DNA of 64,000 bases from Gammaproteobacteria bacterium (GCA_026981985.1 JALSHZ010000121.1:17168-81167); one strand, 5' to 3'. Counted from the first letter of the stretch, positions 5,210 through 55,519 are shown. Notes: a model not told the origin generated them from the sequence alone. Made by a program: numbers and translations.

Positions 5210-5216
5210 GCATCCA

Positions 5217-12380: not shown

Positions 12381-12707
12381 ATGACCGACAAAACGATCGT
12401 ATTGACGACATGGCCTGATCTGGCTGGTGCTGAAGCGTTTGCAAGGCTGCTGGTCGAAAAGCGTCTCGCAGCCTGTATCAACGTCTTGCCGGAGATGGGT
12501 TCCATCTACCAATGGCAAGGCAAGCTTGAGCAGGGTGCAGAGCATCAGTTGATCATCAAGACCACGGTGTCACGCTATGCCGATGTCGAGGCGATGATTG
12601 TCGCGCATCACCCTTATGCGTTACCCGAAATACTATGTATCCCCGTCACTGCTGGGTTTCCCGGCTACCTGAGCTGGATTGAAGAGGCAACCCATGCTGA
12701 AAAATAG
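12381..12707 (+). CDS. cutA: Divalent-cation tolerance protein CutA
   Basis: A 108 aa CutA1 fold lying immediately upstream of dsbD, as in E. coli cutA-dipZ. Confidence 0.88.
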   Translation: MTDKTIVLTTWPDLAGAEAFARLLVEKRLAACINVLPEMGSIYQWQGKLEQGAEHQLIIKTTVSRYADVEAMIVAHHPYALPEILCIPVTAGFPGYLSWIEEATHAEK

Positions 12708-15054: not shown

Positions 15055-15572
15055 GTATGCGCCTGGCCGGATTCCTCTTTGCCCTGGCCTTGCTAGTCGG
15101 CACTGGGGTCTATCTGCTCGCCAAGGGCTCGGCGGAAGCCCCGGGCGACAATCGGCTGCGGCCAGCCTTTACGCTGCCTGATCTGGAGGGGCATGACCAT
15201 GACATCAGCGAATGGGATGGCAAAATCCTGCTGGTCAACTTCTGGGCAACCTGGTGCCCGCCCTGCCGCCATGAAATCCCGGATTTCATCGAAGTGCGCA
15301 GCAAGTATGCCGATCGGGGCTTTGAGATCGTTGGTGTCGCCATCGATGATGCCGACAGTGTTCGCGACTATGTGGATGTATTGGAAATCGACTACCCGAT
15401 TCTGTGGGGTGGGGCGAATGCTTCTGCAATAGCGCGTCAGTATGGCAATCGAAGCAATGCACTGCCGTACAGCGCCCTGATCGATCGCCAGGGCCGCATC
15501 CGCTTCTCCGGTGCGGGTAGACTGCCGCGCGATTCGCTGGAGAAGGCGGTGCTGTCGCTACTCGACGAATAA
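15051..15572 (+). CDS. TlpA/ResA-family thiol-disulfide oxidoreductase
   Basis: An N-terminal anchor and the redoxin motif WCPPC. It overlaps the dsbD stop codon. Confidence 0.85.
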   Translation: MSMRLAGFLFALALLVGTGVYLLAKGSAEAPGDNRLRPAFTLPDLEGHDHDISEWDGKILLVNFWATWCPPCRHEIPDFIEVRSKYADRGFEIVGVAIDDADSVRDYVDVLEIDYPILWGGANASAIARQYGNRSNALPYSALIDRQGRIRFSGAGRLPRDSLEKAVLSLLDE

Positions 15573-23111: not shown

Positions 23112-23492
23112 TTATGAGGTAAGCGCTGTTTTCATATCCTCTACCGATACCGGATGCACCAGCACGGCATGTACGGGGAATAGCTTTTTCAGCTTATCGA
23201 CGTATTCGCATTCTTTTTTGCTGACCATCACCACCACCTTTGCATCGGGTGCGTAGCGTTGCAGGCTGGCGAGCAGGGTGTCGAGATTGGAGACATTGAC
23301 GCCGGCATAGTTATTGCCATAACCATAAAAAAATTCCCCGACGACGATGGCGGGTGGCGTTGACTTCAGCTTGCCGATGGCTTTGCGCTGAGACATGAAT
23401 TTCAGCTCATCGAAACCCAGTTCTTCATACACGGAGGACATTTTCGGGTGGGCGGATGATTCGATGATCGAATAGAGGATCGGTTTGCTCAT
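23112..23492 (-). CDS. Hypothetical 126 aa protein, co-transcribed with the MFS transporter
   Basis: The start [11 protein letters not shown] overlaps the MFS gene stop by 4 bp (ATGA). Confidence 0.5.
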
Positions 23493-24700
23493 GGGGTGGA
23501 ACTTCCAAACTGATGCGCCAGATGCCAGCACAGCCATGCTGCCAGAAAGCAGCCGAGCTGGCCAGCGACGAACCAGACCAGTTCGTCATGGAGCAGCGGT
23601 ACCAGCATTCCGGCCACGGCCGCGTTGAGCAGCATCTGAAAAAATGACTGCATGGCCGCTGCGGCGCCACGATTCTGCGGAAAGCAATCCAGTGCGGCGA
23701 TCGTTATTCCAGGCATGGCGATGGTCAGGCCGGTGGCGTAGACCACGATCGGCGCAATAACGGTAAGGACTGTTGGTGCGAGCCAGAACGCCTGGGCCAG
23801 ATTGCTCAGGCAGGCGATGGCGATGATGATAAAGCCGGTGGTGACGGTGCGGATCGGGCTCAGCTGGTGGATCAGGCGGTTGGCGAGAAGCGAGCCCGCC
23901 AGAATGCCAAAGGTCACCGGCACAAACTGCACCCAGAAATCATCGCTGCCCAGGCCAAGGAAGTCGAAGATGACGGTCGGTGCGCCGGCAATATAGAGGA
24001 ACAAACCACCGAAGCCGATCCCCAGTGACATTACCAGCAACAGGAAGCGCAGCCGGCTGAGGATGTCGCGGTAGATGCCCAGAACATACCGCGGATGGAA
24101 TGAGCGACGTGCTGTGACCGGTAGTGTTTCCGGAACGCGCAGCAGTACCAGCCACAAGGCGAGCAGGCCATAACTGGTGAGAAACCAGAAAATGCTGCGC
24201 CAGCCCGCTAGCGCATGCAGCCAGCCGCCGATAATCGGCGCGATTGCCGGGGCGAGCGAAAACAACATCATCACCCGGGCCATCGCCTTTTGCGCACCGA
24301 TGCTGTCGAAAGCATCGCGAATCGTCGCCCGGCTGGCGACAAAGCCACCGCTGGCCGCCACGCCTTGCAGGCTGCGGGCCAGCATCAGCGACTCGAAACT
24401 GGTGGCAAAGGCGCACAGCAGCGATGCCATGGCGTAGAGGAAAATGGCGCCGAGCATGATGCGGCGGCGGCCATAGCGATCCGAAAACGGTCCCCAGAAC
24501 AGCGTCATCACCGCGAACCCGACCAGATAGGCGCTCAGTGTTTGTGACAGCGCTGCCCGGCTGACAAGCAATTCCGCTTCGATGGAAGGGAAAGCCGGCA
24601 GATAGGTATCGATGCTGAACGGCCCGATCATGGCGATCAGCGCCACGGACAGGATCAGGCCACGGCTGCCGAGCTGCGATTTGGGAACGGATGAGGTCAT
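23489..24700 (-). CDS. MFS transporter, Bcr/CflA drug-resistance subfamily
   Basis: Twelve transmembrane helices and Bcr/CflA-type N-terminal motifs (GPFSIDTYLPAFPSI). Confidence 0.88.
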   Translation of the reverse strand: MTSSVPKSQLGSRGLILSVALIAMIGPFSIDTYLPAFPSIEAELLVSRAALSQTLSAYLVGFAVMTLFWGPFSDRYGRRRIMLGAIFLYAMASLLCAFATSFESLMLARSLQGVAASGGFVASRATIRDAFDSIGAQKAMARVMMLFSLAPAIAPIIGGWLHALAGWRSIFWFLTSYGLLALWLVLLRVPETLPVTARRSFHPRYVLGIYRDILSRLRFLLLVMSLGIGFGGLFLYIAGAPTVIFDFLGLGSDDFWVQFVPVTFGILAGSLLANRLIHQLSPIRTVTTGFIIIAIACLSNLAQAFWLAPTVLTVIAPIVVYATGLTIAMPGITIAALDCFPQNRGAAAAMQSFFQMLLNAAVAGMLVPLLHDELVWFVAGQLGCFLAAWLCWHLAHQFGSSTP

Positions 24701-27993: not shown

Positions 27994-29796
27994 TTGAAGT
28001 TGCTCTGTTCTACGAAAAACCCCGGTTTGGTTTGCACATCTGCCTGGCTGTTGCTCGCCCTGCTGTTGATGGGCCGCGTTGCCCTTGCTGAAGAGCTGGC
28101 CGCCGACGATACAGGGGTTCAGGTGGTGGTCAGAATCAGCGGGCTGGAGGGCCGTTTACTGGAGAATGTCCAGGGATTTCTCGATATCTGGGCTTTCAAC
28201 GGTAAGAGCATCCGTTCCATCGCGCGCTTGAAGTACCTGCATCGCAGTGCGGCAGAGCAGATCGCAACAGCATTGCGGCCATTTGGCTATTATCGCGCCA
28301 AAGTCGAATCGACGCTGGAAAAAACCGATGAGGGGTGGCTTGCCGTTTATCAGGTTGATCTGGGCGAGCCCGTCGAGGTGACGAAGCTGGATATCCGTCT
28401 CAGCGGTGACGGCCAGGAGGATGCCGTTTTTCAACAGGCGCTGAATCAATCGACGTTGCGTGAGGGTGTGGCGCTCGACCAGGAGGCTTATGAAGCACTG
28501 AAAAGCCGGTTTCAGGTGATTGCCTCGCAACGTGGATACTTCGATGCCAAGCTGGAAAAGAACGAAATCCGTATCGACCTGAAAAAATACACTGCCGAGA
28601 TTTCGCTGCATTTCAATACGGGCAAGCGTTACCGGCTGGGAGAGGTGATTTTTCATCAGGACCAACAGTGGATCGACGATGATTTGTTACGCCGCTACAG
28701 TACGATCAAGCCGGGGCAGTTCTACGATGCTGGTGACCTGCAACAGTTGCAGGGTGATCTCAGCAGTTCCGAATATTTCAAGCAGGTGGAAATCAGCGTG
28801 ACGCCGGAGTCGGCGCAGGATCACCAGCTGCCAGTCGAGGTTTTTCTCAAGCCAAAAAAGGCGCGCAAGTATATTTACGGTATTGGTTACGGCACCGATA
28901 CGGGAGTACGTGCCAAGGCGGGGATCACTGGCCGCAGGGTCAATCGTCGTGGGCATCATTACACGGCCGAGTTGTTGGTGTCGGAAATTCTCTACGGCGT
29001 TGCGGGTGAATATATCATTCCGGGCAAGGACCCACGCAGTGATGCCTGGGGCTTGCGCGCGTCCTATCTCGATGAGCATTCCGAAACGAAAAATTATCAA
29101 GCCTGGTCGATGGGTGGCTACTATAAATATCGGGATGATGTCTGGCTCAAGACCTACGCTTTGGATTATCGCGTCGAGCGCTTCGAGCTGGGGGATGAAA
29201 AGCCCATCAGCCAGTTGCTGATTCCCAGTGCAGAATGGACGCGGACACTGCCAGCCGAGCTGGAAAATAGAATTTTTGCCACCAATGGTGCGTGGTTGCG
29301 GCTGTTTGTCCGAGGTGGTGCAGAAGCGCTGCTTTCCGATACCAGTTTTCTGCAACCCATGGTATCGGCGAAATGGATTCGCAGTTTCGCCAACCGCCAT
29401 CGTCTGATCGGTCGTGCCGCGCTGGGGACGACCTGGGTCAGTGATTTTTCTGCCTTGCCGACCTCGCTGCGGTTTTTTACTGGCGGCGATCGTACCGTGC
29501 GTGGCTATAAATATTCGGTCATCGGGCCACTCGATGGGGAGGATGTCGTCGGCGGCAAGCATTTGATTGAGGCAAGTATCGAATATGAATTTCCCATTCG
29601 GGAGAAATGGAGTATCGCGTTGTTTGCCGACAGTGGCGATGCCTTCGATGATCAGCCTGATTACAAAACCGGTGTGGGCATCGGATTGCACTGGCGTTCG
29701 CCGATCGGGCCGGTGCGCCTTGATTTTGCCCGCGGCCTGGAGCAGCCGGTTGGCAATAAATTGCTATTGCATCTGACGATAGGGCCAGACCTGTGA
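27994..29796 (+). CDS. tamA: Translocation and assembly module outer-membrane protein TamA (Omp85 family)
   Basis: POTRA domains and a C-terminal beta-barrel. It lies immediately upstream of the tamB (DUF490) gene. Confidence 0.88.
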   Translation: MKLLCSTKNPGLVCTSAWLLLALLLMGRVALAEELAADDTGVQVVVRISGLEGRLLENVQGFLDIWAFNGKSIRSIARLKYLHRSAAEQIATALRPFGYYRAKVESTLEKTDEGWLAVYQVDLGEPVEVTKLDIRLSGDGQEDAVFQQALNQSTLREGVALDQEAYEALKSRFQVIASQRGYFDAKLEKNEIRIDLKKYTAEISLHFNTGKRYRLGEVIFHQDQQWIDDDLLRRYSTIKPGQFYDAGDLQQLQGDLSSSEYFKQVEISVTPESAQDHQLPVEVFLKPKKARKYIYGIGYGTDTGVRAKAGITGRRVNRRGHHYTAELLVSEILYGVAGEYIIPGKDPRSDAWGLRASYLDEHSETKNYQAWSMGGYYKYRDDVWLKTYALDYRVERFELGDEKPISQLLIPSAEWTRTLPAELENRIFATNGAWLRLFVRGGAEALLSDTSFLQPMVSAKWIRSFANRHRLIGRAALGTTWVSDFSALPTSLRFFTGGDRTVRGYKYSVIGPLDGEDVVGGKHLIEASIEYEFPIREKWSIALFADSGDAFDDQPDYKTGVGIGLHWRSPIGPVRLDFARGLEQPVGNKLLLHLTIGPDL

Positions 29797-32700
29797 TTGG
29801 CAGAATGCTCAAATGGCTTGCCAGCCTGTTGCTGCTTCTGCTGCTATTGGTGGTGGGCGCAGTGGCGTATTTCACCGCCACGGAAGACGGCCTGCAGCGC
29901 CTGCTGGCGCTGGGCCAGCGCGTTGCACCCGGAACGCTGAGCTGGCAGCAGGCCGAAGGCCGAATCGCCGGGCCGCTGGATCTGGCGGGTTTCGACTACC
30001 AGCAGGAAAATGGTTTGCAGGTCAATATACGCTCGGTGGCACTGCGCTGGCAGCCACAGGCATTGCTGCAACGCAAACTGCATTTGCAGCGCTTGGCGCT
30101 TTCCGGGTTGACGCTGCATCTGCCCAAGCCGGCAGCGGATGATCTGGAGCAACCGGCAGGCCCAATCGAGTTGCCGGATATCGATCTGCCGATGGATATC
30201 AGCATCGATGAACTGGATCTCGACGATATTCGCATTTATCCCTGGGGCAAGGCGCAGCCGATCGTGATCGACCGCATCAAGCTGGCAGCGGTCGGTGGCG
30301 GCAGCCGTTTGCAAGTGGTCCAGCTCGACCTGCATGCACCAGAGGGGGCGGCCAGCCTCAGCGGTACGGTCGAGCCGCAAGGGGATTATCCGCTCGACCT
30401 CAAGCTCGATTGGCATTTCAATCATCCGCAGTTTGGGGCGTTTGCCGGCAGCGGTGCAGCCACGGGGGATCTGGCGATGCTGCATCTCACGCAGCATGTG
30501 AGTGGGCCCGTTGGCATCGACCTGGTCGCCGATCTGAGCGATGTTCTCAGCAAGCCTGCCTGGGATGCGCGCTTGCAACTGATGGCAGATGATCTGGCAG
30601 CATTTTCACCGGCTCTGAACGGGGCGCCGCTGCAAGCCGAGTTTCGATCTGCCGGCAGTCTGGACAGCTTTTCCGCCGAGGGTGACCTCAAGACAGCGCT
30701 GCCGCAAACTGGGCCGGTGGCGGTGGACTTCTCCGCGCGTGGCAATACCCAGGCCATTGAGCTGGAGCGTCTCAGGCTGCAACCCGAAAACCAGGCCAGT
30801 GAGTTGCTGCTGGCAGGCAAGGTCGAACTCGCACCGCTGCAGTTCGATTTACGGGGAGACTGGCAGCAGCTCGGCTGGCCGTTGCAGGGTGAGCCCATAT
30901 TCTCCAGCCCGAGCGGGAATGTCTCTGTGATCGGGTCGCTCGAAGACTATCGCTTGTCACTCGCCGCCGAGGCGGCCGGGCGGGATATTCCGTCGGGCCG
31001 CTGGACCTTGACCGGCCATGGCTCCGATTCGGCCTTGTCCGACTTCAAGCTCGTGGGCAGTTTGCTTGATGGTGAGATGACGGCGAGCGGGCAGGCCAGC
31101 TGGAAGCCACAGCTGTCATGGCATGTGAGCATTGATGCAAAAGGGATCAACCCCGCAGTGCAGTGGCCGGAATTGCCGGGAAAACTGGATCTGGCCCTGA
31201 CTTCGCAAGGCAAGCTAACGTCGGCTGGCCCCGATCTGACAGCACATCTGGCGCATCTGACCGGGCGTTTTCGTGACCAGCCTGTGCGTGGGCAGGGCGA
31301 GATCGTAGTGGCTGATGGCGAGCTGGATATTCGCCGTCTCGATATCAGCAGTGGAAAAACAGCGCTCACTGCCAATGGCCATCTCGGCAAGCAATGGGAT
31401 CTCGACTGGCGGTTGCTCGCGCCGGATCTAGCCAGCCTTGTGCCATCACTGCGTGGGCGGATCAGTGGCAGCGGCAAGCTCAGCGGCGATGCCAGCAATC
31501 CGGTGGCTGTGATCGATCTCGACGTGCGTGACCTGGTGGCCGGCGATACGCGGATCGGGCGCTTGAATGGCAAGGCGTTGGTGGATATTGGCGGCCAGCG
31601 GCGCTCGCAGATCGACTTTTCCGGAACGAAGCTGAAGCTCGCCGGGGAGGCGTGGTCGAGCCTGAAAATTTCCGGCGGCGGCAAACCCGCGCAGCATAAG
31701 CTCGCGGTGAAGCTGGAAGGTGATCTGGCAAGACTGCGACTTGCGCTGGAGGGTGGGCTCAAAAAAGCGCGGTGGCAAGGGAAGCTGACGCAGCTGGAAG
31801 CGACAAAAACCGAGCTTGGTGACTGGAAGATGGTGCGGGCAGCGCCGCTGACCGCCAGCGCCGAAGCCGCGCAGCTCAGCGGGCTTTGTCTGGCCAGTGC
31901 GCCGACCAGGGTCTGCGTCGATGCCGACTGGAACAAGCAGAAGGGTGTAACTGGCAAGCTGCAACTCACGGAACTTGATGCGCAGCGATTCCGCCGCTTC
32001 CTGCCGCCCGACATCACGCTGCAAACGGCCGTGGATGGCGGTGTCGATTTCGCCCTGGCTGCTGATGGCAAGCCGCGGGTGAAGGCTGATCTGCGTTTGC
32101 GTCCGGGTAAACTCTCCGCGCCGGGCGATGTCGAGCCGCTCGAAGTCCGGCTGGGCGAAAGCCAGATCAAGGCGACCCTTGACGGTGATCGCGCCAATAC
32201 CGAGTTGTCGGTTGACCTCGATGCGCTCGGGCGAATCGAAGCCCGCGTCGCTGTACGCGGTATCGGTGCCAGCCAGCCGCAGTTGACAGGGAAGGTCGAG
32301 GGACGGATTCGTGACCTCGCGATCATCAGTGCTTTCGTGCCGCAGTTACAGGCGGTCGAGGGCCGGCTGGATGCCGATTTGACGCTCAGTGGCCCCGTCA
32401 GTCTGCCAGTGGTGAGCGGTAAGCTGCTGGTCGATGATTTTTCCGCCGAGGTGCCCGAGGTATCGCTGAACATCACGGCGGGGCGCTTTGAACTGGCCAG
32501 TGATGGTAAAGGTCCGCTGCGAATCGCCGGTGGTGCCCGCTCGGGAGAGGGTACGCTGAAGCTGTCGGGCACGCTTGATCCGGCCACCAGGGCATTGCAG
32601 CTGAAGATCAATGGCGATCGTTTCCAGGTGGCGGCAACGCGGAATATTCGCGCCGTGATCAGCCCCGACATGCAGATCGCCATGGACAGCAAGGGCATGC

Positions 32701-33419
32701 GGGTTGAAGGTGAGCTGCTGATTCCCAGTGCCTATATCAAGGCCGGTGGCGGCAGTGGAGGCGAGGGCAAGCTGGTGAAAGTATCCAGTGATGTGGTGAT
32801 CGTGGATGAGAATGGCGAGGCGGCGAAAAAAGCGCCAGCCGGGAATTTTCATCTCAACCTGCGCGTCGTGCTGGGGGATGATATTCGTGTCGAAGCAGCC
32901 GATTTCAGCGGCAAGCTGAAAGGCAATCTGCTGGTGACGCAAAAACCAGGGCTGGTGCCAAGAGCTACCGGCGCCATCGAGGTGGTGAACGGCGACTATA
33001 TCGTTTACGGCCAGCAGTTGAAGATCCAGCGCGGGCGCATTCTGTTTGGCGGTGGCCCGGTTGACAATCCCCGGCTCGATATGGATGTCGCCCGGCGTGT
33101 CGAAGCTTATGATGTACTCGCTGGCGCGAGAATTCGCGGCACGGCGCAGGCACCGATTCTGCAACTTTACTCCGAGCCGTCGATGCCGGATTCGAGCATT
33201 CTTTCCTATATGTTGCTGGGGCAGCCGCCAGGAACCAAAGGCGGCAGTTACACCTTGGGAAAATACCTGACGCCTGATCTCTATGTGGGCTATGGCATCG
33301 GTCTTTTCAATGCCATCAACACCTTCAACATGCGCTATCGCCTGACTGACAAGCTAGCGCTGCAAGCCGCCTCCGGTGCGGCCAGCAGCGCGGATCTCAT
33401 CTACACTTTCGAGCGTTGA
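29793..33419 (+). CDS. tamB: Translocation and assembly module protein TamB
   Basis: 1208 aa with an N-terminal anchor and a C-terminal DUF490 domain. Its start overlaps the tamA stop by 4 bp. Confidence 0.9.
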   Translation: MIGRMLKWLASLLLLLLLLVVGAVAYFTATEDGLQRLLALGQRVAPGTLSWQQAEGRIAGPLDLAGFDYQQENGLQVNIRSVALRWQPQALLQRKLHLQRLALSGLTLHLPKPAADDLEQPAGPIELPDIDLPMDISIDELDLDDIRIYPWGKAQPIVIDRIKLAAVGGGSRLQVVQLDLHAPEGAASLSGTVEPQGDYPLDLKLDWHFNHPQFGAFAGSGAATGDLAMLHLTQHVSGPVGIDLVADLSDVLSKPAWDARLQLMADDLAAFSPALNGAPLQAEFRSAGSLDSFSAEGDLKTALPQTGPVAVDFSARGNTQAIELERLRLQPENQASELLLAGKVELAPLQFDLRGDWQQLGWPLQGEPIFSSPSGNVSVIGSLEDYRLSLAAEAAGRDIPSGRWTLTGHGSDSALSDFKLVGSLLDGEMTASGQASWKPQLSWHVSIDAKGINPAVQWPELPGKLDLALTSQGKLTSAGPDLTAHLAHLTGRFRDQPVRGQGEIVVADGELDIRRLDISSGKTALTANGHLGKQWDLDWRLLAPDLASLVPSLRGRISGSGKLSGDASNPVAVIDLDVRDLVAGDTRIGRLNGKALVDIGGQRRSQIDFSGTKLKLAGEAWSSLKISGGGKPAQHKLAVKLEGDLARLRLALEGGLKKARWQGKLTQLEATKTELGDWKMVRAAPLTASAEAAQLSGLCLASAPTRVCVDADWNKQKGVTGKLQLTELDAQRFRRFLPPDITLQTAVDGGVDFALAADGKPRVKADLRLRPGKLSAPGDVEPLEVRLGESQIKATLDGDRANTELSVDLDALGRIEARVAVRGIGASQPQLTGKVEGRIRDLAIISAFVPQLQAVEGRLDADLTLSGPVSLPVVSGKLLVDDFSAEVPEVSLNITAGRFELASDGKGPLRIAGGARSGEGTLKLSGTLDPATRALQLKINGDRFQVAATRNIRAVISPDMQIAMDSKGMRVEGELLIPSAYIKAGGGSGGEGKLVKVSSDVVIVDENGEAAKKAPAGNFHLNLRVVLGDDIRVEAADFSGKLKGNLLVTQKPGLVPRATGAIEVVNGDYIVYGQQLKIQRGRILFGGGPVDNPRLDMDVARRVEAYDVLAGARIRGTAQAPILQLYSEPSMPDSSILSYMLLGQPPGTKGGSYTLGKYLTPDLYVGYGIGLFNAINTFNMRYRLTDKLALQAASGAASSADLIYTFER

Positions 33420-36516: not shown

Positions 36517-36710
36517 GGAAGCTGAAATGCTTTGGTATCAATCAGCACTATGACGGCGCTGGCGGTCAAATTCAAGCAGGAAGTCGGGCGGCTGTTCCAT
36601 GCGCCCTTCGCTCTCACCGCTACTATGGCAAACCCTATCAGGTTGTCCTCCAGACAAGACCTCGGCAGAGATTCGGGCTAGACTCAGCATATTTTTCAAG
36701 GGGATACCCA

Positions 36711-37231
36711 TGCTACTTCGACGTCCTGGTTCGACACGCCGTCGCTGGCTCGTGTTTCTGATTCAGGCGCTGGTTTTGTTGATGCTGTATCTGGGTTTGA
36801 AGCTGTGGATGCAGCGTGACATGGTGTCAGGGCAAGTCCCGGATCTGACGACGCATCTGGTCAGTGGTGAGCGCTTTTCACCGCATGACTATGCCGGTCG
36901 GGTCTGGTTATTGCATTTCTGGGCCGAATGGTGCGCGATCTGCGCTGCCGAGCAGGGGGCGATCTCATCGGTCGCTGCCAAGTGGCCGGTGGTGACCGTT
37001 GCGATGCAGTCCGGGGATCGGTTGGCTGTTGAAGATTATCTGCGTGACAACGGTCTTGATTGGCAGACGATTGTCGATCAGACCGGTGCCATATCGAAAC
37101 GGTTCGGTGTTTCCGCCGTGCCGGCTTCTTTTGTCATCGACAGCTCGGGGAAGATTCGTTTCCGCGAAATGGGGTATACCACCAGTTGGGGGTTGAGATT
37201 CAGGCTGTGGTTAGCCAGCCTGCTGGAATGA
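36711..37231 (+). CDS. TlpA-family thiol-disulfide oxidoreductase
   Basis: An N-terminal anchor, then WCAIC in a redoxin fold. A longer ORF starts at 36599. Confidence 0.8.
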
Positions 37232-39891: not shown

Positions 39892-41940
39892 ATGAATCAG
39901 CTCAGCAAAGAAACTAGCCCCTACCTTCTCCAGCATGCCGATAACCCGGTCGACTGGTATCCGTGGAACCCGGAAGCGCTGGCACTTGCCCGCAATGAGG
40001 ACAAGCCGATCCTGCTGTCGATTGGCTATTCCGCCTGCCACTGGTGTCATGTCATGGCCCACGAGTCGTTCGAGGATGCAGCAACGGCCGAACTGATGAA
40101 CCGCTATTTCGTCAACATCAAGGTCGATCGCGAGGAGCGTCCCGATCTCGACCGGATCTATCAGACGGCGCACTATCTGTTGACTCAGCGCAGCGGTGGT
40201 TGGCCGCTCACCGTGTTTCTGACGCCGGATGATCTGCTGCCATTCTACGCCGGCACCTATTTTCCGCCTGTAGCACGACACGGCCTGCCCGGATTTCGGG
40301 ATCTGCTGGTCGGTGTCGCCGATCTCTACCGCGAGCGGCACGATGAGGTGCGCCAGCAGGGCGCGGCGTTACAGCGGGCCTTGTCTCAGGCGGTCAATCA
40401 GCGTCACCCCAGTGTCGAGCTGGGGCCGCAGCTGCTGGCCAGGGCGGTTGAGGCACTCGCCGAGCGCTATGATGCCGACAATGGTGGTTTCGGCCAGGCG
40501 CCGAAGTTTCCCCATCCCACCACGCTGGCATTTTTGCTGCGTCGCTGGCTATTGTCGCGTGGCGGAGATGAGGTCGACCTGAAAGCGCTGGAAATGCTGG
40601 CCTATACGCTGAAGAAAATGGCGTTGGGTGGTGTCAACGATCAGATCGGTGGTGGTTTCTGTCGTTATTCGGTGGATGACTACTGGATGATTCCTCACTT
40701 TGAAAAGATGCTGTACGACAATGCCCAGTTGCTGCCGCTCTATGCCACCACAGCGATCACCACCGGCAGCGCTTTGTTCCGGCGTGTTGCAGCGGAAACA
40801 GGGCAGTGGGTGATGCGCGAAATGCAGTCCCCAGAAGGGGGGTATTTCTCCGCGCTGGATGCCGATAGCGAGGGAGAGGAGGGCAAGTTCTATGTCTGGA
40901 CGACCGACGAGGTAGCAGCACTGCTCAGTGAGGAGGAGTACCTCTATTTTGCACACCGCTATGGCTTGAACCGGCCGTCCAATTTTGAGGGCAAATGGTT
41001 GCCTCATGTCTATATGGAGTATGAGGTGCTGGAGAAACAGTTCTCGCGGCCGGAAAGCGAGATTCGTCAGATTATCGACATGGCCCGCAACAAACTGCTG
41101 GCAGCACGATCCGGGCGGGTCAGGCCGGGCAAGGACGAGAAAGTCCTGACTTCATGGAATGGGTTGATGATCTCCGGCATGGCGATTGCGGGGAGATTGC
41201 TGGGGCGCGAGGATTTCATCGACTCGGCGGAGCAGGCGTTGGCATTCATTCAGCGTGAGCTATGGGTTGACGGGCGTTTGCTGGCCACCAGCAAGGACGG
41301 ACATGCCCATCTGGCTGCCTATCTCGACGACTACGCCTTCCTGCTGGACGCGATCCTGGAGCTGCTGCAAGCACGCTGGAATGCGGCGCAACTGCGTTTC
41401 GCTGGCAAGCTCGCCGATGTCATGCTCAAACACTTCGAAGATCACGACAACGGTGGCTTCTTTTTCACCGCTGATGATCACGAGCGCCTGCTGGAACGGC
41501 TCAAGCCCTTCGCTGACGAGGCATTGCCAGCCGGCAATGCGGTGGCGGCCAAGGCGCTGGGCCGACTGGGCTATCTGCTGGGTGACAACCGCTATATCGA
41601 TGCATCTCAGCGTTGCATGGCGGCCGGTTCCGGGCTGGTCGCTCAGGCGCCGGTAGCACACTGCGGCATGCTGGCAGCGCTGCAAGAACAGATCGAGCCG
41701 CCCAGGATCATGGTGGTTCGAGGTGAGGGGCAGGCGCTGGAGGAGTGGGCAATGGCGCTTGCTGCGCATTCAGATCCACGCACACTCGGCTTTGCGATAC
41801 CGAATGATGCCAGTGATTTGCCGCCGGCGCTGGCGATTAAATCGGGACGTGACGAAGGCCCGGTTGCCTATCTGTGTGAAGGCATACAGTGTGCCGAACC
41901 GGTTGTTGAGCTGGCAGATTTCACGCAATTACTGGCTTGA
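39892..41940 (+). CDS. Thioredoxin-domain protein of the DUF255/YyaL family (N-terminal thioredoxin fold plus six-hairpin glycosidase-like domain)
   Basis: The CHWCH motif near the N-terminus and SPATA20-like architecture. Confidence 0.88.
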
Positions 41941-42124
41941 GTTGTGAGTGCGCGGTAGTCGATAGCTGCGGTTTTGGCAGAACATTACTCGTTCGTAATC
42001 TGTGCCGGGCTGGCTAGAAATTAATGTTCTATGTTATATACTCACTTTAATTGGTTGAAAATATTGCTTTTAAAGGTGCTGTAGCTGGTTGGTTGGCGGC
42101 GCCTTCTCACTGGGGAGTAGCGTC

Positions 42125-42565
42125 ATGAAATTTCTTGGAAGCCTGATGATCGCAGCATTTATCGTGATGATGCCGCAGTCGGCCATTAGCAAGATCAGGG
42201 TTGTCGATACCAGCAGCACCACACCGATGGACATCGTCTGGACCTCAAAGAACAGTACCGGCCAGGTTGTCGTACACCTCTATATGTATTGGGGCTTGCA
42301 GTGTCCGCATTGCCATGAGGCGATGCCGTTCATCAAGAAGATTGCGCGCAACTACCCCTGGGTGAAAGTGCATTTGCGCGAGATCAGTGAAAACCGCAAG
42401 AATCTGGTGTCGATGTACAACATGGCCGATGCGATCGGTGAGTCCAATGTAGCGATTCCGGCATTCTTCTACTGTGGTTATCTGTACACTGGCTGGGGTG
42501 ACGATGAGACCACGGGTGCATGGCTGGTGGATGAGCTGAAACAGTGCCGTGGTAATCCTATTTGA
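42125..42565 (+). CDS. Secreted thioredoxin-fold protein with a CPHC active site (DsbA-like motif)
   Basis: A signal peptide and CPHC. An AT-rich promoter region lies upstream. The gene is lower in GC. Confidence 0.65.
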   Translation: MKFLGSLMIAAFIVMMPQSAISKIRVVDTSSTTPMDIVWTSKNSTGQVVVHLYMYWGLQCPHCHEAMPFIKKIARNYPWVKVHLREISENRKNLVSMYNMADAIGESNVAIPAFFYCGYLYTGWGDDETTGAWLVDELKQCRGNPI

Positions 42566-42673
42566 CGAAACCGCCACCTCGGCGACACAAATTATGTAGA
42601 GCGTATCAGCCGTTCGGCTGATGCTTTGCACTTACGATTACGTCCTCTCCTAGCAGGTAAAAAGGGCGTATCA

Positions 42674-43702
42674 ATGAATAAGATCCTTACCGTCACCGTC
42701 AATTACAAGACAGCCGAACTCACCATCAAGTGCATTGAATCCGTTGCCCGGGAGCGTGAGCTGAATGCCCCGGGGCTGGAGATGTGTGTTGTCGACAATG
42801 ACTCGCAAGATGGCTCGGTCGAGAAAATTGCCGCGGCGGTACGGGAAAACGGCTGGTCCGATTGGGTTGAGGTGCTTCCCGCGGGTTGCAATGGCGGATT
42901 CTCCTTCGGCAACAATGTGGCGATCCGCCCTGCGCTCGCCCGGCCACGTGATCAGCAGCCTGACTTCATCTGGTTGCTCAACCCTGATTCTGAAGTCGAA
43001 CCCGGTGCGGCCCTTGAGCTGATCCGGTTCATGCAGGAGCGTCCGCGGGTGGGCATGACGACAGGGCTTTCCTATGGTTTGGATGATGAGATTCAGACCG
43101 TGGCCTATCGCCACTTCAGTCCGCTGACCGAGTTTGTTGGCATGTCACAAATTGGTGTGCTTGAACGCCTGATGCCGTTCTCGAATGTCGTGCTGCCGTT
43201 GGGTGATGAGCCCAGCCAGGCGGTCTGGCTTTCCGGCGCCTCGCTGATGATCCGTCGCGAGGTGTTCGATGATACGGGCCTGATGGATGAAGACTATTTT
43301 CTCTACTTCGAGGAAACCGATCTGTGCATCCAGGCCGGGCGTGCCGGCTGGGAGATGTGGTATGTGCCAGCCAGCCGGGTGATGCATGTCGAAGGCGCTG
43401 CGACGGGTTTCACGCTCGAAGAGGTGGCCAAGCCGCGGCGTGCGCGGTACTGGTTTGAGTCGCGGCGTCGTTTCTTCCGCAAAAACTACGGCTTGCTGGT
43501 CGCCATGCTGGCGGATCTGGGCCATCTGAGCGGATATATGCTGTGGCGTCTGCGCCGCATGCTCCAGAACAAGCCGGATCTCGACCCGCCGTTCTACTTG
43601 CGCGACTTCGTTGCCAACAGCATTTTCGTGGCAGGATTCGGTTTGGGGCGCAGCAAGCTGGCTATTCCGCAATCTCCAGAACGGCTCGCTGGCCGGGCGT
43701 AA
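42674..43702 (+). CDS. Family 2 glycosyltransferase (paralog 1 of 3)
   Basis: A GT-A fold with VVDNDSQDGS (DXD), and a conserved C-terminus YWFESRRRFF shared with the two other copies. Confidence 0.85.
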   Translation: MNKILTVTVNYKTAELTIKCIESVARERELNAPGLEMCVVDNDSQDGSVEKIAAAVRENGWSDWVEVLPAGCNGGFSFGNNVAIRPALARPRDQQPDFIWLLNPDSEVEPGAALELIRFMQERPRVGMTTGLSYGLDDEIQTVAYRHFSPLTEFVGMSQIGVLERLMPFSNVVLPLGDEPSQAVWLSGASLMIRREVFDDTGLMDEDYFLYFEETDLCIQAGRAGWEMWYVPASRVMHVEGAATGFTLEEVAKPRRARYWFESRRRFFRKNYGLLVAMLADLGHLSGYMLWRLRRMLQNKPDLDPPFYLRDFVANSIFVAGFGLGRSKLAIPQSPERLAGRA

Positions 43703-44459
43703 TGTCCTTGTCGGTGGTGAAGCTGACGCTGAGTTCAAGTAGTGCGGGGTTGCTTGCGGCCGGCGCTATCTGCTGGATCATTCCCTTGAAGCGTTCATCA
43801 CCAACAGTGACGCCGATCGTTTGCCCCACGGTGAGTTGATCGCCCTGTTGCGGCGTGATTCGCGCGATTGCCAGCAAGTGGCCACCGCGGGCAATGCGTA
43901 GTATGGGGGTGATATCGCAACGATTGCTGACCGTTTCACCGGGGTGGACATTCTGCTCGGTGATCACGCCACTGAACGGGGCGCGGATCTGGCTGTATTC
44001 GAGCTGGATTTGCGCCAGCGCCAGTTCCGCGTTGGCGCGTGCAAGGTCGGCCTGAGCGCTGTCGTAACGGGCCTGGACGTCTTCCAGTGCGGTGGTCGAC
44101 AGTACCGTGCGATCGAACAGTTCCTCGGCGTGGCGTAACTCCCGCTCGGCAATGCGGAGCTGGCTGCTGAGGCGCTGAACCTCCGCTGCGGCGCGTTTCT
44201 TCTCTGCTTGCAGCGGGCGTGGGTCCAGTGTGGCAAGCAAGGCCCGTTTCTTCACCCGATCACCAACCGAGACCTTCACGCTGGCGATACGGCCGCTCAA
44301 CGGTGTCGACAGCGTGGCGGTCTCGGCCCAGCGCAGGGTTGCCGGCAGTTCTTCGGCCGTGGCGTCCTGGCTGATCGGCGCAAGCATCACCAGGAGTATT
44401 GAAAAACAACGGCTGAATTGACGTGATGCCTTGGTGATTCGGCTGTGTGATTGTGTCAT
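43662..44459 (-). CDS. Short HlyD-family periplasmic adaptor (membrane fusion protein)
   Basis: A signal peptide, a biotinyl/lipoyl-like domain, an alpha-hairpin and a beta-barrel domain. It overlaps the TolC-family gene by 4 bp. Confidence 0.8.
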   Translation of the reverse strand: MTQSHSRITKASRQFSRCFSILLVMLAPISQDATAEELPATLRWAETATLSTPLSGRIASVKVSVGDRVKKRALLATLDPRPLQAEKKRAAAEVQRLSSQLRIAERELRHAEELFDRTVLSTTALEDVQARYDSAQADLARANAELALAQIQLEYSQIRAPFSGVITEQNVHPGETVSNRCDITPILRIARGGHLLAIARITPQQGDQLTVGQTIGVTVGDERFKGMIQQIAPAASNPALLELSVSFTTDKDITPGQRAVLEIAE

Positions 44460-45799
44460 TGCGTGGCCTCGTTTGCGGCGGCTGCATCAGGTGGTGTGAG
44501 GGCGCTCCAGCTGGGGTTGCCGGTCAGAACAACCAGTGTTTCGCGTGCCAACGCCAGCTCAAAGCGGGTTTTTTCCGCAAACTGGCGGGCATCGCTCTGT
44601 TCAACCATGGCATCGCCCAGATCGGTCTTGATTTCCAGTTCATATTCGGCGCGGCTGCGATCCAGGTAAAGTTCACGGTAGTCTTCACGGATAGTCGCCT
44701 GTTTCAGTTGTAGCTGAAGTGTCGCGATCTGCTGCAATGTCGTCAGTAGCTTTTGCCTGATTTCGTATTCGGTCTGTGTCTTTTGTGCAGTGAGGCTGCG
44801 CCGTTTGGCAAGGCGGGCACTGATGTCGGCATCGACACGTCCACCCTGATACAAGGGCACATTGATGCCGAGAATGCCGCGCAATGGCGTGCGGCTGCCA
44901 TACTCCTGGCGATATTCATGGGCTTCCAGTTGTAGATAGAGTTCTGGGTAGCGTTGCGCACGAACGGCTTTTTGCTCGTCTTGCAAGGCCAGTAGCTGCG
45001 CATTCAGGGCCTGGAGCGCCGGATTGTTGGCCAGGCTGTCGTTGAGCAGATCTTCATATTCGGGCAGCGGGCTTGTCAGCCCGGGCAGTTGGGGTGGCTC
45101 CAGAGTGGCGGAGAGCTCATCTGGACGGTTCAGTGTCAGTGCTAGCTGGGCGCGGGTCTGGCGTTGTGCCGATTCCGCACGCTGGCGCTGTAGCAACTGC
45201 TGCTGATAGGCATCCTCCAGCTTGAGCAGCTCAAGCTCCGGGATTCTCCCAAGTTCCAGTTCATCCCTCGCTCGGTCGAGACGAACATAGGCAACGGCCA
45301 TGGCTTCGTTAGCGCTAGCGGCGGCGAGGTCGGCGAGCAGGACGTTGAAGTAGTCTTGCATCACTTGCTGGCGTAGCTGTAGTCGTGTCAGGGCCAGCGT
45401 CGCCCGGCTCGCGGCGGTTTCTTTGGAAGCTGCATCAATGCGGTGGCGGGTGCGCCCAAAATCATACAGGCGCTTGTATAAGGTGATGCTCGCTCGTGAG
45501 TCGTCGCGACTGTCGTAGGGTGGGCCGGCTATTGGCTTGATACGATGTAATTCTGCGGTCAAGTCGATGCGGGTATCGTCGCTTGCTGCAACCTGTGCGG
45601 CATCCGCTTCGCGGCTTGCCGTGTCGGCTTGTGCTCCAACGAGGCGGGGGTGGTTGTCATCGATCGAGGCCAGTGCTGCCGCCAGACTGAGTGGTTCGGG
45701 CAATGTTGCGGCTGGGGTTTCCATCTCGTCGCCAGCGCTAGTGTTTTGGCACCATAGCAGGCTGAGGAGAATCAGCTGAGGCAGTAACCGCTTGCTCAT
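44456..45799 (-). CDS. TolC-family outer-membrane efflux protein
   Basis: The signal peptide MSKRLLPQLILLSLLW and two OEP repeats. The ORF could extend to 46054. Confidence 0.85.
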   Translation of the reverse strand: MSKRLLPQLILLSLLWCQNTSAGDEMETPAATLPEPLSLAAALASIDDNHPRLVGAQADTASREADAAQVAASDDTRIDLTAELHRIKPIAGPPYDSRDDSRASITLYKRLYDFGRTRHRIDAASKETAASRATLALTRLQLRQQVMQDYFNVLLADLAAASANEAMAVAYVRLDRARDELELGRIPELELLKLEDAYQQQLLQRQRAESAQRQTRAQLALTLNRPDELSATLEPPQLPGLTSPLPEYEDLLNDSLANNPALQALNAQLLALQDEQKAVRAQRYPELYLQLEAHEYRQEYGSRTPLRGILGINVPLYQGGRVDADISARLAKRRSLTAQKTQTEYEIRQKLLTTLQQIATLQLQLKQATIREDYRELYLDRSRAEYELEIKTDLGDAMVEQSDARQFAEKTRFELALARETLVVLTGNPSWSALTPPDAAAANEATQ

Positions 45800-45812
45800 G
45801 CGAGGGGGGTTC

Positions 45813-46352
45813 CTAGCGTTGTCGTTGGCTGAGCTTGAAGCGGGTAAAGCTGCCATTCTTGTAGTGGCCCTCTGCGACATAGCGGCCGAGCAACATGAAC
45901 TCCTTTGCGTCGCGACTTGCACCGATGAAACGTGCAGTCCGTTTGCCTTCGAGGTCGAAAAAGGCGATGACAGGCGTTGCTCTGACGCGGTGCTCTCTGC
46001 TGGCGAAGTCCTTCTGGGTCGTCTGTTTGCCCGCGAAATTGACCAGTTCCACATCGCCTTCGATATCGATACTGATGATGCGGAAGTGTTTGCGGTAGTA
46101 GTCCTGAACGTCGGGTTGGTTGAGCACCTCCCGTTTCATGCGGTGGCAGAACGGACAGTCGTCCATCTCGAAGAAGATCACGATGCCCTGTTTGCCTTCT
46201 TCTCGCGCTGTCTCCAACTCTTCGGAAAGGTCGCCAAAGGACTCCTGAAAGAAGTGGGTGGCAGGGTCACGGCCCGCAGCAGAAAGGCCGGGGATGGAGA
46301 GAGCGATGGCGAGTATCAGCAGAAAAAACAGCTTTGGGGTGTGTCTGTGCAT
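45813..46352 (-). CDS. Secreted thioredoxin-fold protein with a CPFC motif (SoxW/TlpA-like)
   Basis: A signal peptide and DDCPFCHRMK. It is the first gene of the TolC-family and adaptor operon. Confidence 0.7.
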   Translation of the reverse strand: MHRHTPKLFFLLILAIALSIPGLSAAGRDPATHFFQESFGDLSEELETAREEGKQGIVIFFEMDDCPFCHRMKREVLNQPDVQDYYRKHFRIISIDIEGDVELVNFAGKQTTQKDFASREHRVRATPVIAFFDLEGKRTARFIGASRDAKEFMLLGRYVAEGHYKNGSFTRFKLSQRQR

Positions 46353-46550
46353 GAATGTGGCGATGCTCCAGTGCGTTGTCGAGGCACTCAACAATACTGG
46401 ATCAAGGGGTTCGGGCGATCAAGCGACTTTTTCCCAGCCATTGCAGCGTGTTCCCTGACTGCCGGCCTGGCAACAAGGTATGACGTGGCTTGAAAAACCA
46501 CTCTCGTGGCGCCATGCTGAACAGACAATCTTCTTTTCTGCGAGACCCAC

Positions 46551-53278: not shown

Positions 53279-54262
53279 TCAGGTCTTACGCTTGTCGAGC
53301 GAGAACCCCTTGACGAAAACACTGTGCCGGAAAAAATCCGTCAGATAGGCTGGCGGATCGAGGTTTTGCTTGCGTTGGATGAACTGACGTATCAGCCAGA
53401 GTGAATAGCCAGCCATGTGCAGGGCGTCAGCCAGCGCCGCATAGGCAGCGCCGTGATTCTTGATGAAGTAGCGGCGGCGGGATTCGAACCAGTAGCCGGG
53501 CCTTCGTGGTTGCCGGGCGCTGGTGTGCCGAAAACCTGTCGAGGCGCCAATCACGTGCAGGATTCTGCTCTCCGGCACATACCAAAGCTCCCAGCCTTTG
53601 CGCTGCGCCTGGAGACAGAAGTCGCTCTCCTCGAAGTAGAGGAAGTAATCTTCGTCCATCAGGCCGATGGTGTCGAAAACCTCGCGCCGAATCATCAGTG
53701 AGGTGCCGGATAGCCACTCCGCCAGGTGTGGTTGGGGTTCCGGCGTGACTGGAATTACCGTTTTTGGCAGCAGGCGATCGACGATCCCGAGCCGCAGGTT
53801 CGAAAAGAATTCACTCAGCGCAGTGAAGTGGCGGAAGGCCATGGCTTTTTGCTCGCCTTCGGGATCGATATAGCGGCTGGTGGCCAGCCCGGCTTTGGGA
53901 TGCGCTTCCATGAAATCCAGCAAGGCCTTGCCTGCACCCTCTAGCGATTCCGCATCAGGGTTGAGCAACCAGAAGTAGTCGGGCGGCTGGTCAGCTGTGA
54001 GTGCCGGGCGGATGGCGATATTGTTGCCATAGGAAAAACCGCCATTGCGTTCGGCCGCGACGACCTCAGCCCAAGACTGCCAGCCATTCTCTTTGATAGC
54101 GTTTCTGATCGTGTCGACAGACCCATCGCCGGACTGATTGTCGACCACAACCATTCGGGTTTGCTCGGGAAGGTTGCGCAGGTCGGCGGCAATGGATGCC
54201 AGGCACTTGATGGTCAGTGCGGCAGTGCGGTAGTTGACGGTGACAATGAGCAGTTTGGGCAT
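53279..54262 (-). CDS. Family 2 glycosyltransferase (paralog 2 of 3)
   Basis: LLIVTVNYRTAALTIKCL..VVDNQSGDGS..YWFESRRRYF. A longer ORF runs to 54289. Confidence 0.85.
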   Translation of the reverse strand: MPKLLIVTVNYRTAALTIKCLASIAADLRNLPEQTRMVVVDNQSGDGSVDTIRNAIKENGWQSWAEVVAAERNGGFSYGNNIAIRPALTADQPPDYFWLLNPDAESLEGAGKALLDFMEAHPKAGLATSRYIDPEGEQKAMAFRHFTALSEFFSNLRLGIVDRLLPKTVIPVTPEPQPHLAEWLSGTSLMIRREVFDTIGLMDEDYFLYFEESDFCLQAQRKGWELWYVPESRILHVIGASTGFRHTSARQPRRPGYWFESRRRYFIKNHGAAYAALADALHMAGYSLWLIRQFIQRKQNLDPPAYLTDFFRHSVFVKGFSLDKRKT

Positions 54263-54481
54263 GGGGGTTGGGCCATTTGGGATTGGCATTGTTGTCTCTG
54301 GCCGCGATGGTAGTAGAGATGCTTGAAAAGATCACGGAACCCATCCGGTTTCCGTGGCGGATGCACTCTTTTGGTTGGTTTGGCCCAGTTGATCTCATGA
54401 TCAGATGAACAGAGTTTCACAGTTGGCCACTCAAGACTGTGTTAGCTTGGTGTTTGGAGGAAGTTGCACAGATATTGACCG

Positions 54482-55519
54482 ATGAGTGAGAAGCCGATTC
54501 AACTGGCGATTGTAACCGTCAACTACAAAACGCCGGACCTGACCAATAGATGTATCGATGCGGTCTTGAACGATGCGCAAGCATTACCGCCCTTTCGCAT
54601 GTTTGTGGTCGATAACAACTCCGGGGACGGGTCGCCGGAGGTGATTGGCCAACATATTGACGCGCGTGACGCAGGTGATTGCGTCGAACTGCTGGTGGCG
54701 CCAGTGAATGGTGGCTACGCCTATGGCAACAATGTTGCGTTGCGCGCCATTCGCGAGCGTGGCTTGGATCCGGCTTATATCTGGTTCCTCAATCCCGATA
54801 CCGAGGTCGAGCTGGGTGCCGGCAAGGCGCTGATCGACTTTCTCGATGCGCATCCACAGGCAGGTATGGCGGGCAGTGGGCTGATCGACGCTGACGGTAC
54901 GCCCCAGATCTCCGCGTTTCGCTTCCACGCGCCTCTGAATGAATTTCTCGAATACATGCAGCTGGGCATTCTGGATCGGCTGTTCAGCAACTATCAGGTA
55001 ACGATGCCGGTCGCGTCAGTGCCGCATCGTGCCGACTGGGTGACCGGCGCCTCGTTCATGATCACGTCGCGGTGCATCGACAGCGTAGGGCTGATGGATG
55101 AAGGCTACTTTCTCTATTATGAAGATGTCGACTATGGTTTTGCGGCAGCCCGGGCCGGATGGGAGGTTTGGACAGTGCCGCAGAGTCGGGTGTTCCACGT
55201 CTGTGGTGCGGCAACGGGTGTGCTCGATTTCAATATGAAACAGCCGCGCCGGCCGGATTACTGGTTCGAATCACGCCGCCGCTTTTTTCTGAAGAACTAC
55301 GGTAAGACGACGCTGCTGCTGGCCGATATTGCCCTGCTGACGGGTTTCTCCCTGTGGCGCCTGAGGCGCCTGATTCAGCGTAAACCCGATTTCGACTCGC
55401 CTGGATTCCTTGGTGATGCATTCCGCCATTCCGTGTTCGCGAAGGGCTTCCGTCTACAGACACGTGCGTTGCCATCGGAAGTCGAGCTGCCGCTGGCGGA
55501 GCAGGATTCCCCATCCTGA
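54482..55519 (+). CDS. Family 2 glycosyltransferase (paralog 3 of 3)
   Basis: LAIVTVNYKTPDLTNRCI..VVDNNSGDGS..YWFESRRRFF. Confidence 0.85.
   Translation: MSEKPIQLAIVTVNYKTPDLTNRCIDAVLNDAQALPPFRMFVVDNNSGDGSPEVIGQHIDARDAGDCVELLVAPVNGGYAYGNNVALRAIRERGLDPAYIWFLNPDTEVELGAGKALIDFLDAHPQAGMAGSGLIDADGTPQISAFRFHAPLNEFLEYMQLGILDRLFSNYQVTMPVASVPHRADWVTGASFMITSRCIDSVGLMDEGYFLYYEDVDYGFAAARAGWEVWTVPQSRVFHVCGAATGVLDFNMKQPRRPDYWFESRRRFFLKNYGKTTLLLADIALLTGFSLWRLRRLIQRKPDFDSPGFLGDAFRHSVFAKGFRLQTRALPSEVELPLAEQDSPS

Follow-up and report, generated by a model that had tools for sequence, protein, structure and literature searches.

What does a TolC-family channel do in an operon that encodes an adaptor and a thioredoxin, and no pump? 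Such channels normally work, with their adaptors, inside energy-coupled pumps that span two membranes. We addressed this question in a 64 kb stretch of DNA from a gammaproteobacterium (GCA_026981985.1, JALSHZ010000121.1:17168-81167; the whole stretch is called the window below). Three of its genes, the trio, encode a secreted thioredoxin-fold oxidoreductase (trx), a TolC-family outer-membrane factor (OMF) and a short adaptor of the membrane fusion protein type (MFP). All the evidence is computational. The trio is conserved, lacks a pump and is joined to DsbD genes in several lineages, which suggests an undescribed, redox-linked exit route through the outer membrane.

The trio in the window

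The three genes lie in the following order, starting from the first gene of the operon (aa, amino acids).

45813-46352, minus strand: trx, secreted thioredoxin-fold oxidoreductase, 179 aa, CPFC motif
44456-45799, minus strand: OMF, TolC-family outer-membrane channel, 447 aa, signal peptide and Pfam OEP match
43662-44459, minus strand: short soluble periplasmic adaptor (MFP), 265 aa, HlyD/RND_mfp family
46353-46550, no strand: divergent intergenic region between trx and fxsA, presumed promoter of the trio

A first-pass annotation, made from the sequence alone, had placed five genes between 41.9 and 46.4 kb: the trio and, facing it, genes for a CPHC thioredoxin and a GT2 glycosyltransferase. All five are real and belong to the families it gave. 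The two sets do converge, the adaptor and GT2 genes overlapping by 41 bp at their 3' ends. Of the 4 bp overlaps reported within the operon, the one between the OMF stop and the adaptor start (ATGA) is there, while a 13-nt spacer separates the trx stop from the OMF start. The probable OMF start is the ATG at 45799, which gives the 447-aa protein. An alternative open reading frame (ORF) of 532 aa would add no more than a stretch that overlaps trx out of frame.

No consensus promoter was called in the region 46353-46550, and an alignment of close relatives shows only short conserved blocks there. In two other loci, L050 (~6560-6600) and L003 (~6010-6050), a promoter-like site TTGACT-16-TATACT is found upstream of trx, with a 14-bp palindrome, TGACCGATCGGTCA, between the hexamers as a possible operator. 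We rejected it as a common operator upstream of trx, since the palindrome overlaps the promoter in these two loci only and is missing from the window.

Conservation and taxonomic range

The first-pass annotation had proposed to look for co-occurrence of the three genes across genomes. The order trx-OMF-adaptor was found in about 45 independent loci, wherever the upstream DNA was present, and down to ~30% adaptor identity. A scan of one genome per species gave 38 loci, in which the trio genes were identified by phmmer, and ten further loci, reached via thioredoxin, OMF or adaptor homologues, showed the identical order.

Every source named below class level is a sulfur-oxidising gammaproteobacterium, a statement that leaves aside a few metagenome-assembled genomes (MAGs) labelled only 'Gammaproteobacteria bacterium' or 'Proteobacteria bacterium'. 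The cultured carriers are Acidihalobacter prosperus, Sulfurivermis fontis, Endothiovibrio diazotrophicus, Ectothiorhodosinus mongolicus and Thioalkalivibrio. The uncultured or higher-rank ones are Thiotrichales (nearest to the window, at 94% identity), Thiothrix, Chromatiales, Chromatiaceae, Sedimenticola, Candidatus Thiodiazotropha, a lucinid symbiont, Thiohalobacter, Thioalkalispiraceae, Thiohalomonadales and a Bathyaustriella symbiont.

The flanks of the trio are core genes (groESL, fxsA, hda, proS, a gene for an SLT-domain lytic transglycosylase, and accBC). They vary between loci, and the synteny with groESL-fxsA, hda, proS and dsbD-accBC spans several orders. The trio is thus no accessory block, as it had been called, and is best explained as a self-contained, vertically inherited module of sulfur-oxidising Gammaproteobacteria.

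The adaptor

The adaptor scores 138 bits against the NCBIfam RND_mfp profile (TIGR01730, cut-off 94.9), and the match covers positions 10-240 of 322. It consists of a Sec signal peptide, a lipoyl domain, an alpha-hairpin and a beta-barrel, where its AlphaFold2 (AF2) model stops (predicted local distance difference test, pLDDT, 88). The two hairpin helices (81-116 and 122-155) have ~35 residues each and are flanked by beta-strands. Foldseek matched the model to MacA, AcrA, MexA and EmrA (8zal) over lipoyl domain, hairpin and barrel only. We found no membrane-proximal domain, no lipobox cysteine and no lipid or transmembrane anchor in the profile match, the model or the family alignment (A1). 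Since the family N-termini in A1 are short hydrophobic signals with AxA-type cleavage sites, and neither a lipobox cysteine nor a transmembrane helix is present, the mature adaptor is soluble.

The hairpin-tip segment ELFDRTVLS is family-invariant and matches the pattern known from adaptor tips, R-x3-L-x6-S. In A1, L114 and S121 do not vary, and most members have arginine at the R position; the window and its nearest relatives have His110 there.

A protein search with the window adaptor delineated a distinct family of 239-304-aa proteins. The profile search gave 1135 matches at E<=1e-30 among 1.84 billion representatives; the best 150 representatives are all full-length (238-306 aa), and full-length short adaptors fill hundreds of 50%-identity clusters. 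In three lineages, with otherwise intact operons, the ~250-aa adaptor is replaced by a mini-adaptor of 168-187 aa, which keeps the signal peptide, the lipoyl halves and the hairpin and has lost the beta-barrel.

L038, 9917-10480: mini-adaptor
L041, ~9962-10426: mini-adaptor
L045, 7001-7522: mini-adaptor

Without a membrane-proximal domain, an anchor or a transmembrane helix, and in these three lineages without a barrel, the adaptor has no known way of coupling to a pump.

The outer-membrane channel

The OMF matches Pfam OEP (PF02321) at 2e-37 with two repeats, scoring 129 against a cut-off of 22. It stays below both NCBIfam sub-family cut-offs (TIGR01844, 66.8 vs 225; TIGR01845, 26.9 vs 210). 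The AF2 monomer model (pLDDT 89, predicted template modelling score 0.81) has the canonical TolC fold, with beta-strands at 77-86, 99-112, 286-296 and 306-313 and helices at 116-182, 188-222, 321-387 and 394-426. Foldseek matched it to ST50, TolC, VceC and CusC (template modelling score ~0.7, E 4e-18 to ~1e-17), while a PDB sequence search with the OMF gave no match at E<1e-3.

According to the family alignment and the model, glycine-containing turns are conserved at both predicted periplasmic helical tips. At the first, L183-G184 is nearly invariant; at the second, D393-x-G395-D396, G395 is invariant and D393 and D396 nearly so. The OMF alignment holds no conserved lipobox and no conserved cysteine. 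The invariant hairpin tip of the adaptor and the conserved tips of the OMF suggest that selection acts on docking of the hairpin to the channel, and not on a bridge to a transporter.

The search for a pump

No ABC, RND or MFS gene adjoins the trio in the window, as the first-pass annotation had said of the operon, and among the other large ORFs of the window Pfam detected no efflux transporter. The only two loci of these transporter classes lie in unrelated contexts.

23489-24700: MFS gene, by Pfam
4514-5912: ABC importer-type permease/ATPase pair, by Pfam

In an all-against-all clustering of flanking ORFs, thioredoxin-fold proteins that are unrelated fell into one cluster together with spurious frames of high GC, which was resolved manually and by Pfam. 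We also scanned 77 large ORFs from 34 loci, all located no more than 5 kb from the trio, and no pump family recurs among them. One of the 77 is an ACR_tran/AcrB-type transporter with its own adaptors, and three are MMPL proteins from related MAGs; all four lie on the opposite strand. Another 12 loci, inspected as gene tables, are likewise free of pump genes. The check for a missing pump, which had been proposed along with the annotation, thus yielded no recurrent partner in the window and the flanks of about 45 loci. The remark that this is not a standard efflux layout was borne out, the operon being thioredoxin-led, pump-less and conserved.

Could the trio still belong to an ordinary tripartite efflux system, with a distally encoded RND, ABC or MFS pump, perhaps a second, anchored adaptor as in TriABC-OpmH, and the thioredoxin as a passenger? 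Outer-membrane factors are frequently shared by distally encoded pumps, as is TolC of E. coli. The adaptor clears the RND_mfp cut-off, its best PDB sequence match is by far TriA-TriB (6vej; 8e-55, next 5e-28), and in L010, though in no other locus, a complete RND operon lies 3 kb from the trio. Nevertheless, no pump gene recurs over the ~45 loci, and the adaptor keeps no known pump-contact surface. Moreover, the thioredoxin is never lost and is the most conserved of the three proteins (mean pairwise identity 55%; OMF 38%, adaptor 34%), which is unlike a passenger. We therefore consider a distal pump unlikely, although it survives best among the alternatives. The inner-membrane protein that does recur beside the trio is an electron transporter, DsbD, and not a solute transporter.

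The thioredoxin

The N-terminus of trx is, by sequence, a hydrophobic secretion signal. The protein matches Pfam Thioredoxin_2 (3e-20) and Thioredoxin_7 (8e-12), and the profile scores are 72.8 bits for PF13098 and 45.5 bits for PF13899, with a cut-off of 27 for both. All 35 family members examined have CPFC, and the cis-Pro motif RVRATPV is conserved. A protein search of a 90%-identity collection gave 2783 clusters at E<=1e-8. Among solved structures, trx comes nearest to H. pylori HP0377 (4fyb) and Chlamydia DsbH (2ju5), both periplasmic reductases. With 35.2 bits against the NCBIfam DsbH equivalog NF043050 (cut-off 190), trx is a relative of DsbH and not a member of that family.

We also considered the OMF and the adaptor as substrates of the thioredoxin via conserved cysteines. 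Since no cysteine is conserved in either alignment, neither is a likely substrate.

The link with cutA, dsbD and tlpA

A second group of genes in the window bears on the trio.

12381-12707, plus strand: cutA, 108 aa, found by phmmer with A. prosperus CutA
12679-15054 (likely start ATG 12694), plus strand: dsbD, inner-membrane thiol:disulfide electron transporter, by Pfam
15051-15572, plus strand: TlpA-like membrane-anchored thiol-disulfide oxidoreductase with WATWCPPC, overlapping the dsbD stop by 4 bp

The dsbD product matches Pfam DsbD_TM (2e-100), DsbD_N (5e-60, in two stretches) and Thioredoxin_7, and the TlpA-like product matches AhpC-TSA (3e-25) and Redoxin (2e-24).

In four lineages (L052, L053, L054 and L055, which comprise A. 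prosperus, Ectothiorhodosinus, a Thioalkalivibrio MAG and L055 itself), dsbD, with or without cutA, follows the trio on the same strand. The cutA gene lies directly 3' of the adaptor gene in L052, L054 and L055. In L055 the whole row reads trx-OMF-MFP-cutA-dsbD-tlpA, followed by aroQ-accB-accC-prmA. Three of the five junctions in the first six genes are overlaps of 4-8 bp (OMF/MFP, MFP/cutA and cutA/dsbD), and the other two are a 56-nt spacer after trx and 4 nt before tlpA. Independently, a TlpA-like membrane-anchored CxxC gene (WATWCPPC) is positioned 20-100 nt upstream of trx in ~24 loci.

The window genes cutA-dsbD-tlpA-aroQ-accBC-prmA have the same order as in L055. Since the window holds the second half of the L055 row, we conclude that one ancestral block was split in this lineage, with ~28 kb now between the halves. 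The window TlpA-like gene matches the operon-linked ones by phmmer at 1e-19 to 1e-25 and is their closest relative in the window. The GT2 gene, the CPHC gene and a DUF255 gene now occupy the former place of cutA after the adaptor gene. A redoxin gene at 36599-37231 was considered as the displaced fourth gene and rejected, with phmmer values of only 1e-4 to 1e-7 against the operon-linked TlpA-like genes. It encodes a TlpA/redoxin-type protein with WAEWCAIC and lies between nadA and an acyl-CoA synthetase gene.

The window DsbD (791 aa) has a tandemly duplicated N-terminal alpha (Ig-like) domain (12694-13770). The copies are 40% identical (E 3e-27) and both retain the YQGCAD.GVCYPP cysteine pair; two alpha domains could serve different periplasmic clients. 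The window as a whole is rich in thioredoxin-fold proteins (DsbD, the TlpA-like protein, the CPFC and CPHC thioredoxins, the DUF255 protein and the redoxin), which is an unusually high number.

A proposed pump-independent exit duct

We propose that the trio forms a pump-independent exit duct which works together with DsbD-fed periplasmic thiol oxidoreductases, and we give this reading a probability of about one half. The soluble adaptor would oligomerise in the periplasm and its hairpin tips would dock on the periplasmic tips of the TolC-like channel. Docking would hold or gate the channel open, and the lower end of the duct would then face the periplasm and not a transporter. The thioredoxin, in most lineages together with the TlpA-like partner, would be a client of the inner-membrane DsbD, probably reduced by it, and would perform thiol-disulfide or sulfane-sulfur chemistry on whatever transits the duct. 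With thioredoxin chemistry at an open duct, passage would follow a concentration gradient or a redox conversion, and would not be pumped by ATP or the proton-motive force. The direction would be outward, and given the strict association with sulfur oxidisers, our leading guess for the substrate is a reactive sulfur or thiol species.

Several points weigh against this proposal. A passive duct open to the periplasm would need tight gating. The nearest solved adaptor relative, TriAB, is a pair of two cooperating adaptors, which would fit a second, anchored adaptor encoded elsewhere. Our pump search spans the window and the flanks of ~45 loci, and a distal pump may be encoded elsewhere in the genomes. 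The first X of the CPFC motif is proline, as in the oxidising DsbA and glutaredoxin motifs, and the sequence does not fix the redox direction of trx. Finally, the adjacency of dsbD may partly reflect an old groESL-fxsA...cutA-dsbD neighbourhood. In E. coli, groESL, fxsA, cutA and dsbD are neighbours too, without the trio, and from such an ancestral arrangement one insertion event could explain all four dsbD-linked loci. The tight coupling in L055 and the independent association with TlpA-like genes still argue for a functional tie.

Since the trio appears restricted to sulfur-oxidising Gammaproteobacteria, chemosynthetic symbionts included, it is a testable candidate for a step in their envelope physiology. 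This step may concern how reactive sulfur is dealt with, or how sulfur or thiol compounds cross the outer membrane.

A more specific version of the exit duct would make the module the path by which zero-valent sulfur (S8, polysulfide or organic persulfide) crosses the outer membrane, which we regard as a rather improbable refinement. The DsbD-fed CxxC proteins would open or shorten sulfur chains by thiol chemistry, and the adaptor-opened duct would pass the hydrophobic sulfur without a pump, either outward for external deposition or inward for use. For the passage of sulfur across the outer membrane, the membrane proteins involved have not been confirmed experimentally (PMC10045233).

Soft metals and a decayed adaptor as unlikely alternatives

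The cutA-dsbD genes that share an operon with the trio also bring to mind soft-metal detoxification of the Cus or Scs type, in which the CxxC thioredoxin and the TlpA-like protein, maintained in the reduced state by DsbD, would bind or handle Cu(I), Ag(I) or Hg(II) and pass the metal to the adaptor and OMF for release via the duct. E. coli cutA/dsbD is a copper-tolerance locus, Salmonella ScsBCD combines a DsbD-like protein with CxxC periplasmic proteins in copper tolerance, and CusCFBA has a small periplasmic carrier in an operon with an outer-membrane factor and an adaptor. The weak PDB matches of the CPHC protein include Scs proteins. However, the adaptor and OMF alignments show no conserved Met/His/Cys cluster, there is no RND equivalent of CusA to supply energy, and the flanks contain no gene for metal sensing or metal resistance. 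Nor would this reading explain why the trio is restricted to sulfur oxidisers. We consider a role in metal release very unlikely.

It is still harder to see the trio as a remnant, in which a decayed adaptor plugs or stabilises a general-purpose OMF and the thioredoxin is an unrelated housekeeping protein (for cytochrome c or SoxYZ) that shares the operon by history. The adaptor does evolve fastest and loses domains, and the thioredoxin resembles the CcmG-like HP0377. Against this, the reading frames are intact, the hairpin tip is invariant, the gene order is fixed over several orders and full-length short adaptors are found in hundreds of clusters at 50% identity. These features argue for selection on the trio as a whole and make decay a highly improbable explanation.

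Neighbouring genes

The following features lie next to the trio in the window.

42015-42042, plus strand: sigma-70-like match TAGAAA-16-TATACT, upstream of the CPHC gene
42125-42565, plus strand: CPHC thioredoxin-fold orphan, secreted, 146 aa, with GGGGAG ribosome-binding site 8 nt upstream
42674-43702, plus strand: GT2 glycosyltransferase, 342 aa, Pfam Glyco_tranf_2_3 at 3e-10

The CPHC protein has a signal peptide and is thus secreted, as annotated. It matches Pfam Thioredoxin below threshold only (0.0095), and all its PDB matches have E>0.04. Its homologues were found only in L001/L002, L007, L008 and L009. The window and four loci, L001, L007, L008 and L009, all close Thiotrichales relatives, are the only ones where the GT2 gene neighbours the trio, and none of the other loci (~40) has GT2 or CPHC next to the trio. 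Both genes are well conserved within these four relatives and are lineage-specific neighbours outside the conserved module. The pair had been described as lower in GC. This holds for the total GC of the CPHC gene (0.515; GC3 normal at 0.673), and not for the GT2 gene, which has the values of its neighbours (GC 0.590, GC3 0.706); GC and GC3 give no sign of a horizontal or foreign origin of the pair. The AT-rich promoter region ahead of them stood in part: the spacer 41941-42124 has a GC of 0.46 against 0.574 in the window and contains the one sigma-70-like match of the region, where shuffles led us to expect 1.9, so that there is no excess over chance.

Two GT2 paralogues lie at 53279-54289 and 54482-55519, which makes three GT2 genes within 13 kb. 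These two are divergent neighbours near ATP-grasp and metallophosphoesterase genes. The idea of the first-pass annotation that GT2 and the other glycosyltransferases make a glycosylated or disulfide-bonded product which the trio exports, or matures by oxidation, draws on the adjacency in the window and four close relatives and on the two more GT2 genes 7-9 kb away, and we dismiss it as having next to no chance, since GT2 and CPHC do not accompany the trio elsewhere, GT2 converges on the trio without a shared transcript, and in L050 the DUF255 gene adjoins fxsA without GT2. What had been named as speaking against that idea was a common conserved operon with a known distal pump partner and no link to glycosyltransferases; the trio is such an operon without the glycosyltransferase link, and no known pump partner emerged.

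The DUF255 gene (39892-41940) encodes a YyaL-type cytoplasmic protein of 682 aa, with CHWC in a thioredoxin-like N-domain. It lies near the trio in Thiotrichales, on the other side in L050 than in the window, and this is probably synteny only. Other envelope-biogenesis genes of the window encode an AsmA-family protein and a TamA/TamB pair (17-1804 and 27994-33419).

Some neighbours were seen in other loci only. A small acylphosphatase gene (~88 aa) abuts or overlaps the adaptor stop in ~20 loci, and not in the window.

L051, 11098-11364: acylphosphatase gene
L020, 9614-9880: acylphosphatase gene
L021, 10744-11010: acylphosphatase gene
L049, 9643-9930: acylphosphatase gene

In the Thioalkalivibrio MAG L054 (2633-5282), genes for an HbpS-like protein, a HisKA_3 kinase and a response regulator lie divergently upstream of trx. 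The set resembles the Streptomyces HbpS-SenS-SenR redox-stress sensor and was seen in this single locus. In L048 (9147-13845, one MAG), a three-subunit molybdopterin oxidoreductase is encoded downstream of the trio; its subunits (molybdopterin, 4Fe-4S and DmsC/NrfD-like) are of the polysulfide/thiosulfate reductase or Soe type.

Comparison with known systems

Like AcrAB-TolC, MacAB-TolC and TriABC-OpmH, the trio has an outer-membrane protein with the TolC fold, and its adaptor shares the lipoyl domain, hairpin, beta-barrel and RLS-type tip of MacA and AcrA, with TriA/TriB nearest in sequence. Unlike these systems, it has no inner-membrane transporter gene in ~45 loci and is linked to dsbD instead, its adaptor is a soluble protein with no membrane-proximal domain, and the first gene of the operon encodes a thioredoxin.

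EmrA has an N-terminal transmembrane helix in the inner membrane and a very long hairpin, and is encoded beside EmrB. The trio adaptor has a cleavable signal peptide and an AcrA-sized hairpin instead, and no MFS gene accompanies it. It resembles EmrA, besides the structural match to 8zal, in lacking the membrane-proximal domain; EmrA-type adaptors, which serve MFS pumps, are described as devoid of it (PMC4158417). With CusCFBA the trio shares an OMF and an adaptor in one operon with a small periplasmic accessory protein. However, it has no CusA-type RND pump and no conserved Met-rich sites, and the accessory protein is a CxxC thioredoxin fold and not the Met/Trp fold of CusF.

The thioredoxin itself resembles the DsbD-dependent periplasmic reductases (DsbH, HP0377/CcmG, TlpA, ScsC/ScsD, and SoxW/SoxS with SoxV), which are also secreted thioredoxin folds with CxxC and cis-Pro, and it shares with them the genetic linkage to dsbD and a TlpA-like gene. 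It differs from them by sharing an operon with an OMF and an adaptor; we know of no other reductase of this group encoded with an outer-membrane channel and adaptor.

In the full-text literature that we searched, which left most subscription-journal papers outside, we came upon neither a thioredoxin-OMF-adaptor operon nor an anchorless adaptor without the membrane-proximal domain. As far as this search goes, the parts belong to known families and their arrangement is apparently undescribed. The new features would be the anchorless adaptor, in some lineages even without the barrel, the lack of a transporter gene, the leading thioredoxin and the operon shared with dsbD. In the trio, a large conserved family departs from the rule that channel and adaptor serve a pump: its adaptors have lost all the parts that would contact a pump, and its operon is linked to electron transfer via DsbD, which points to a pump-independent, redox-linked use of the exit duct.

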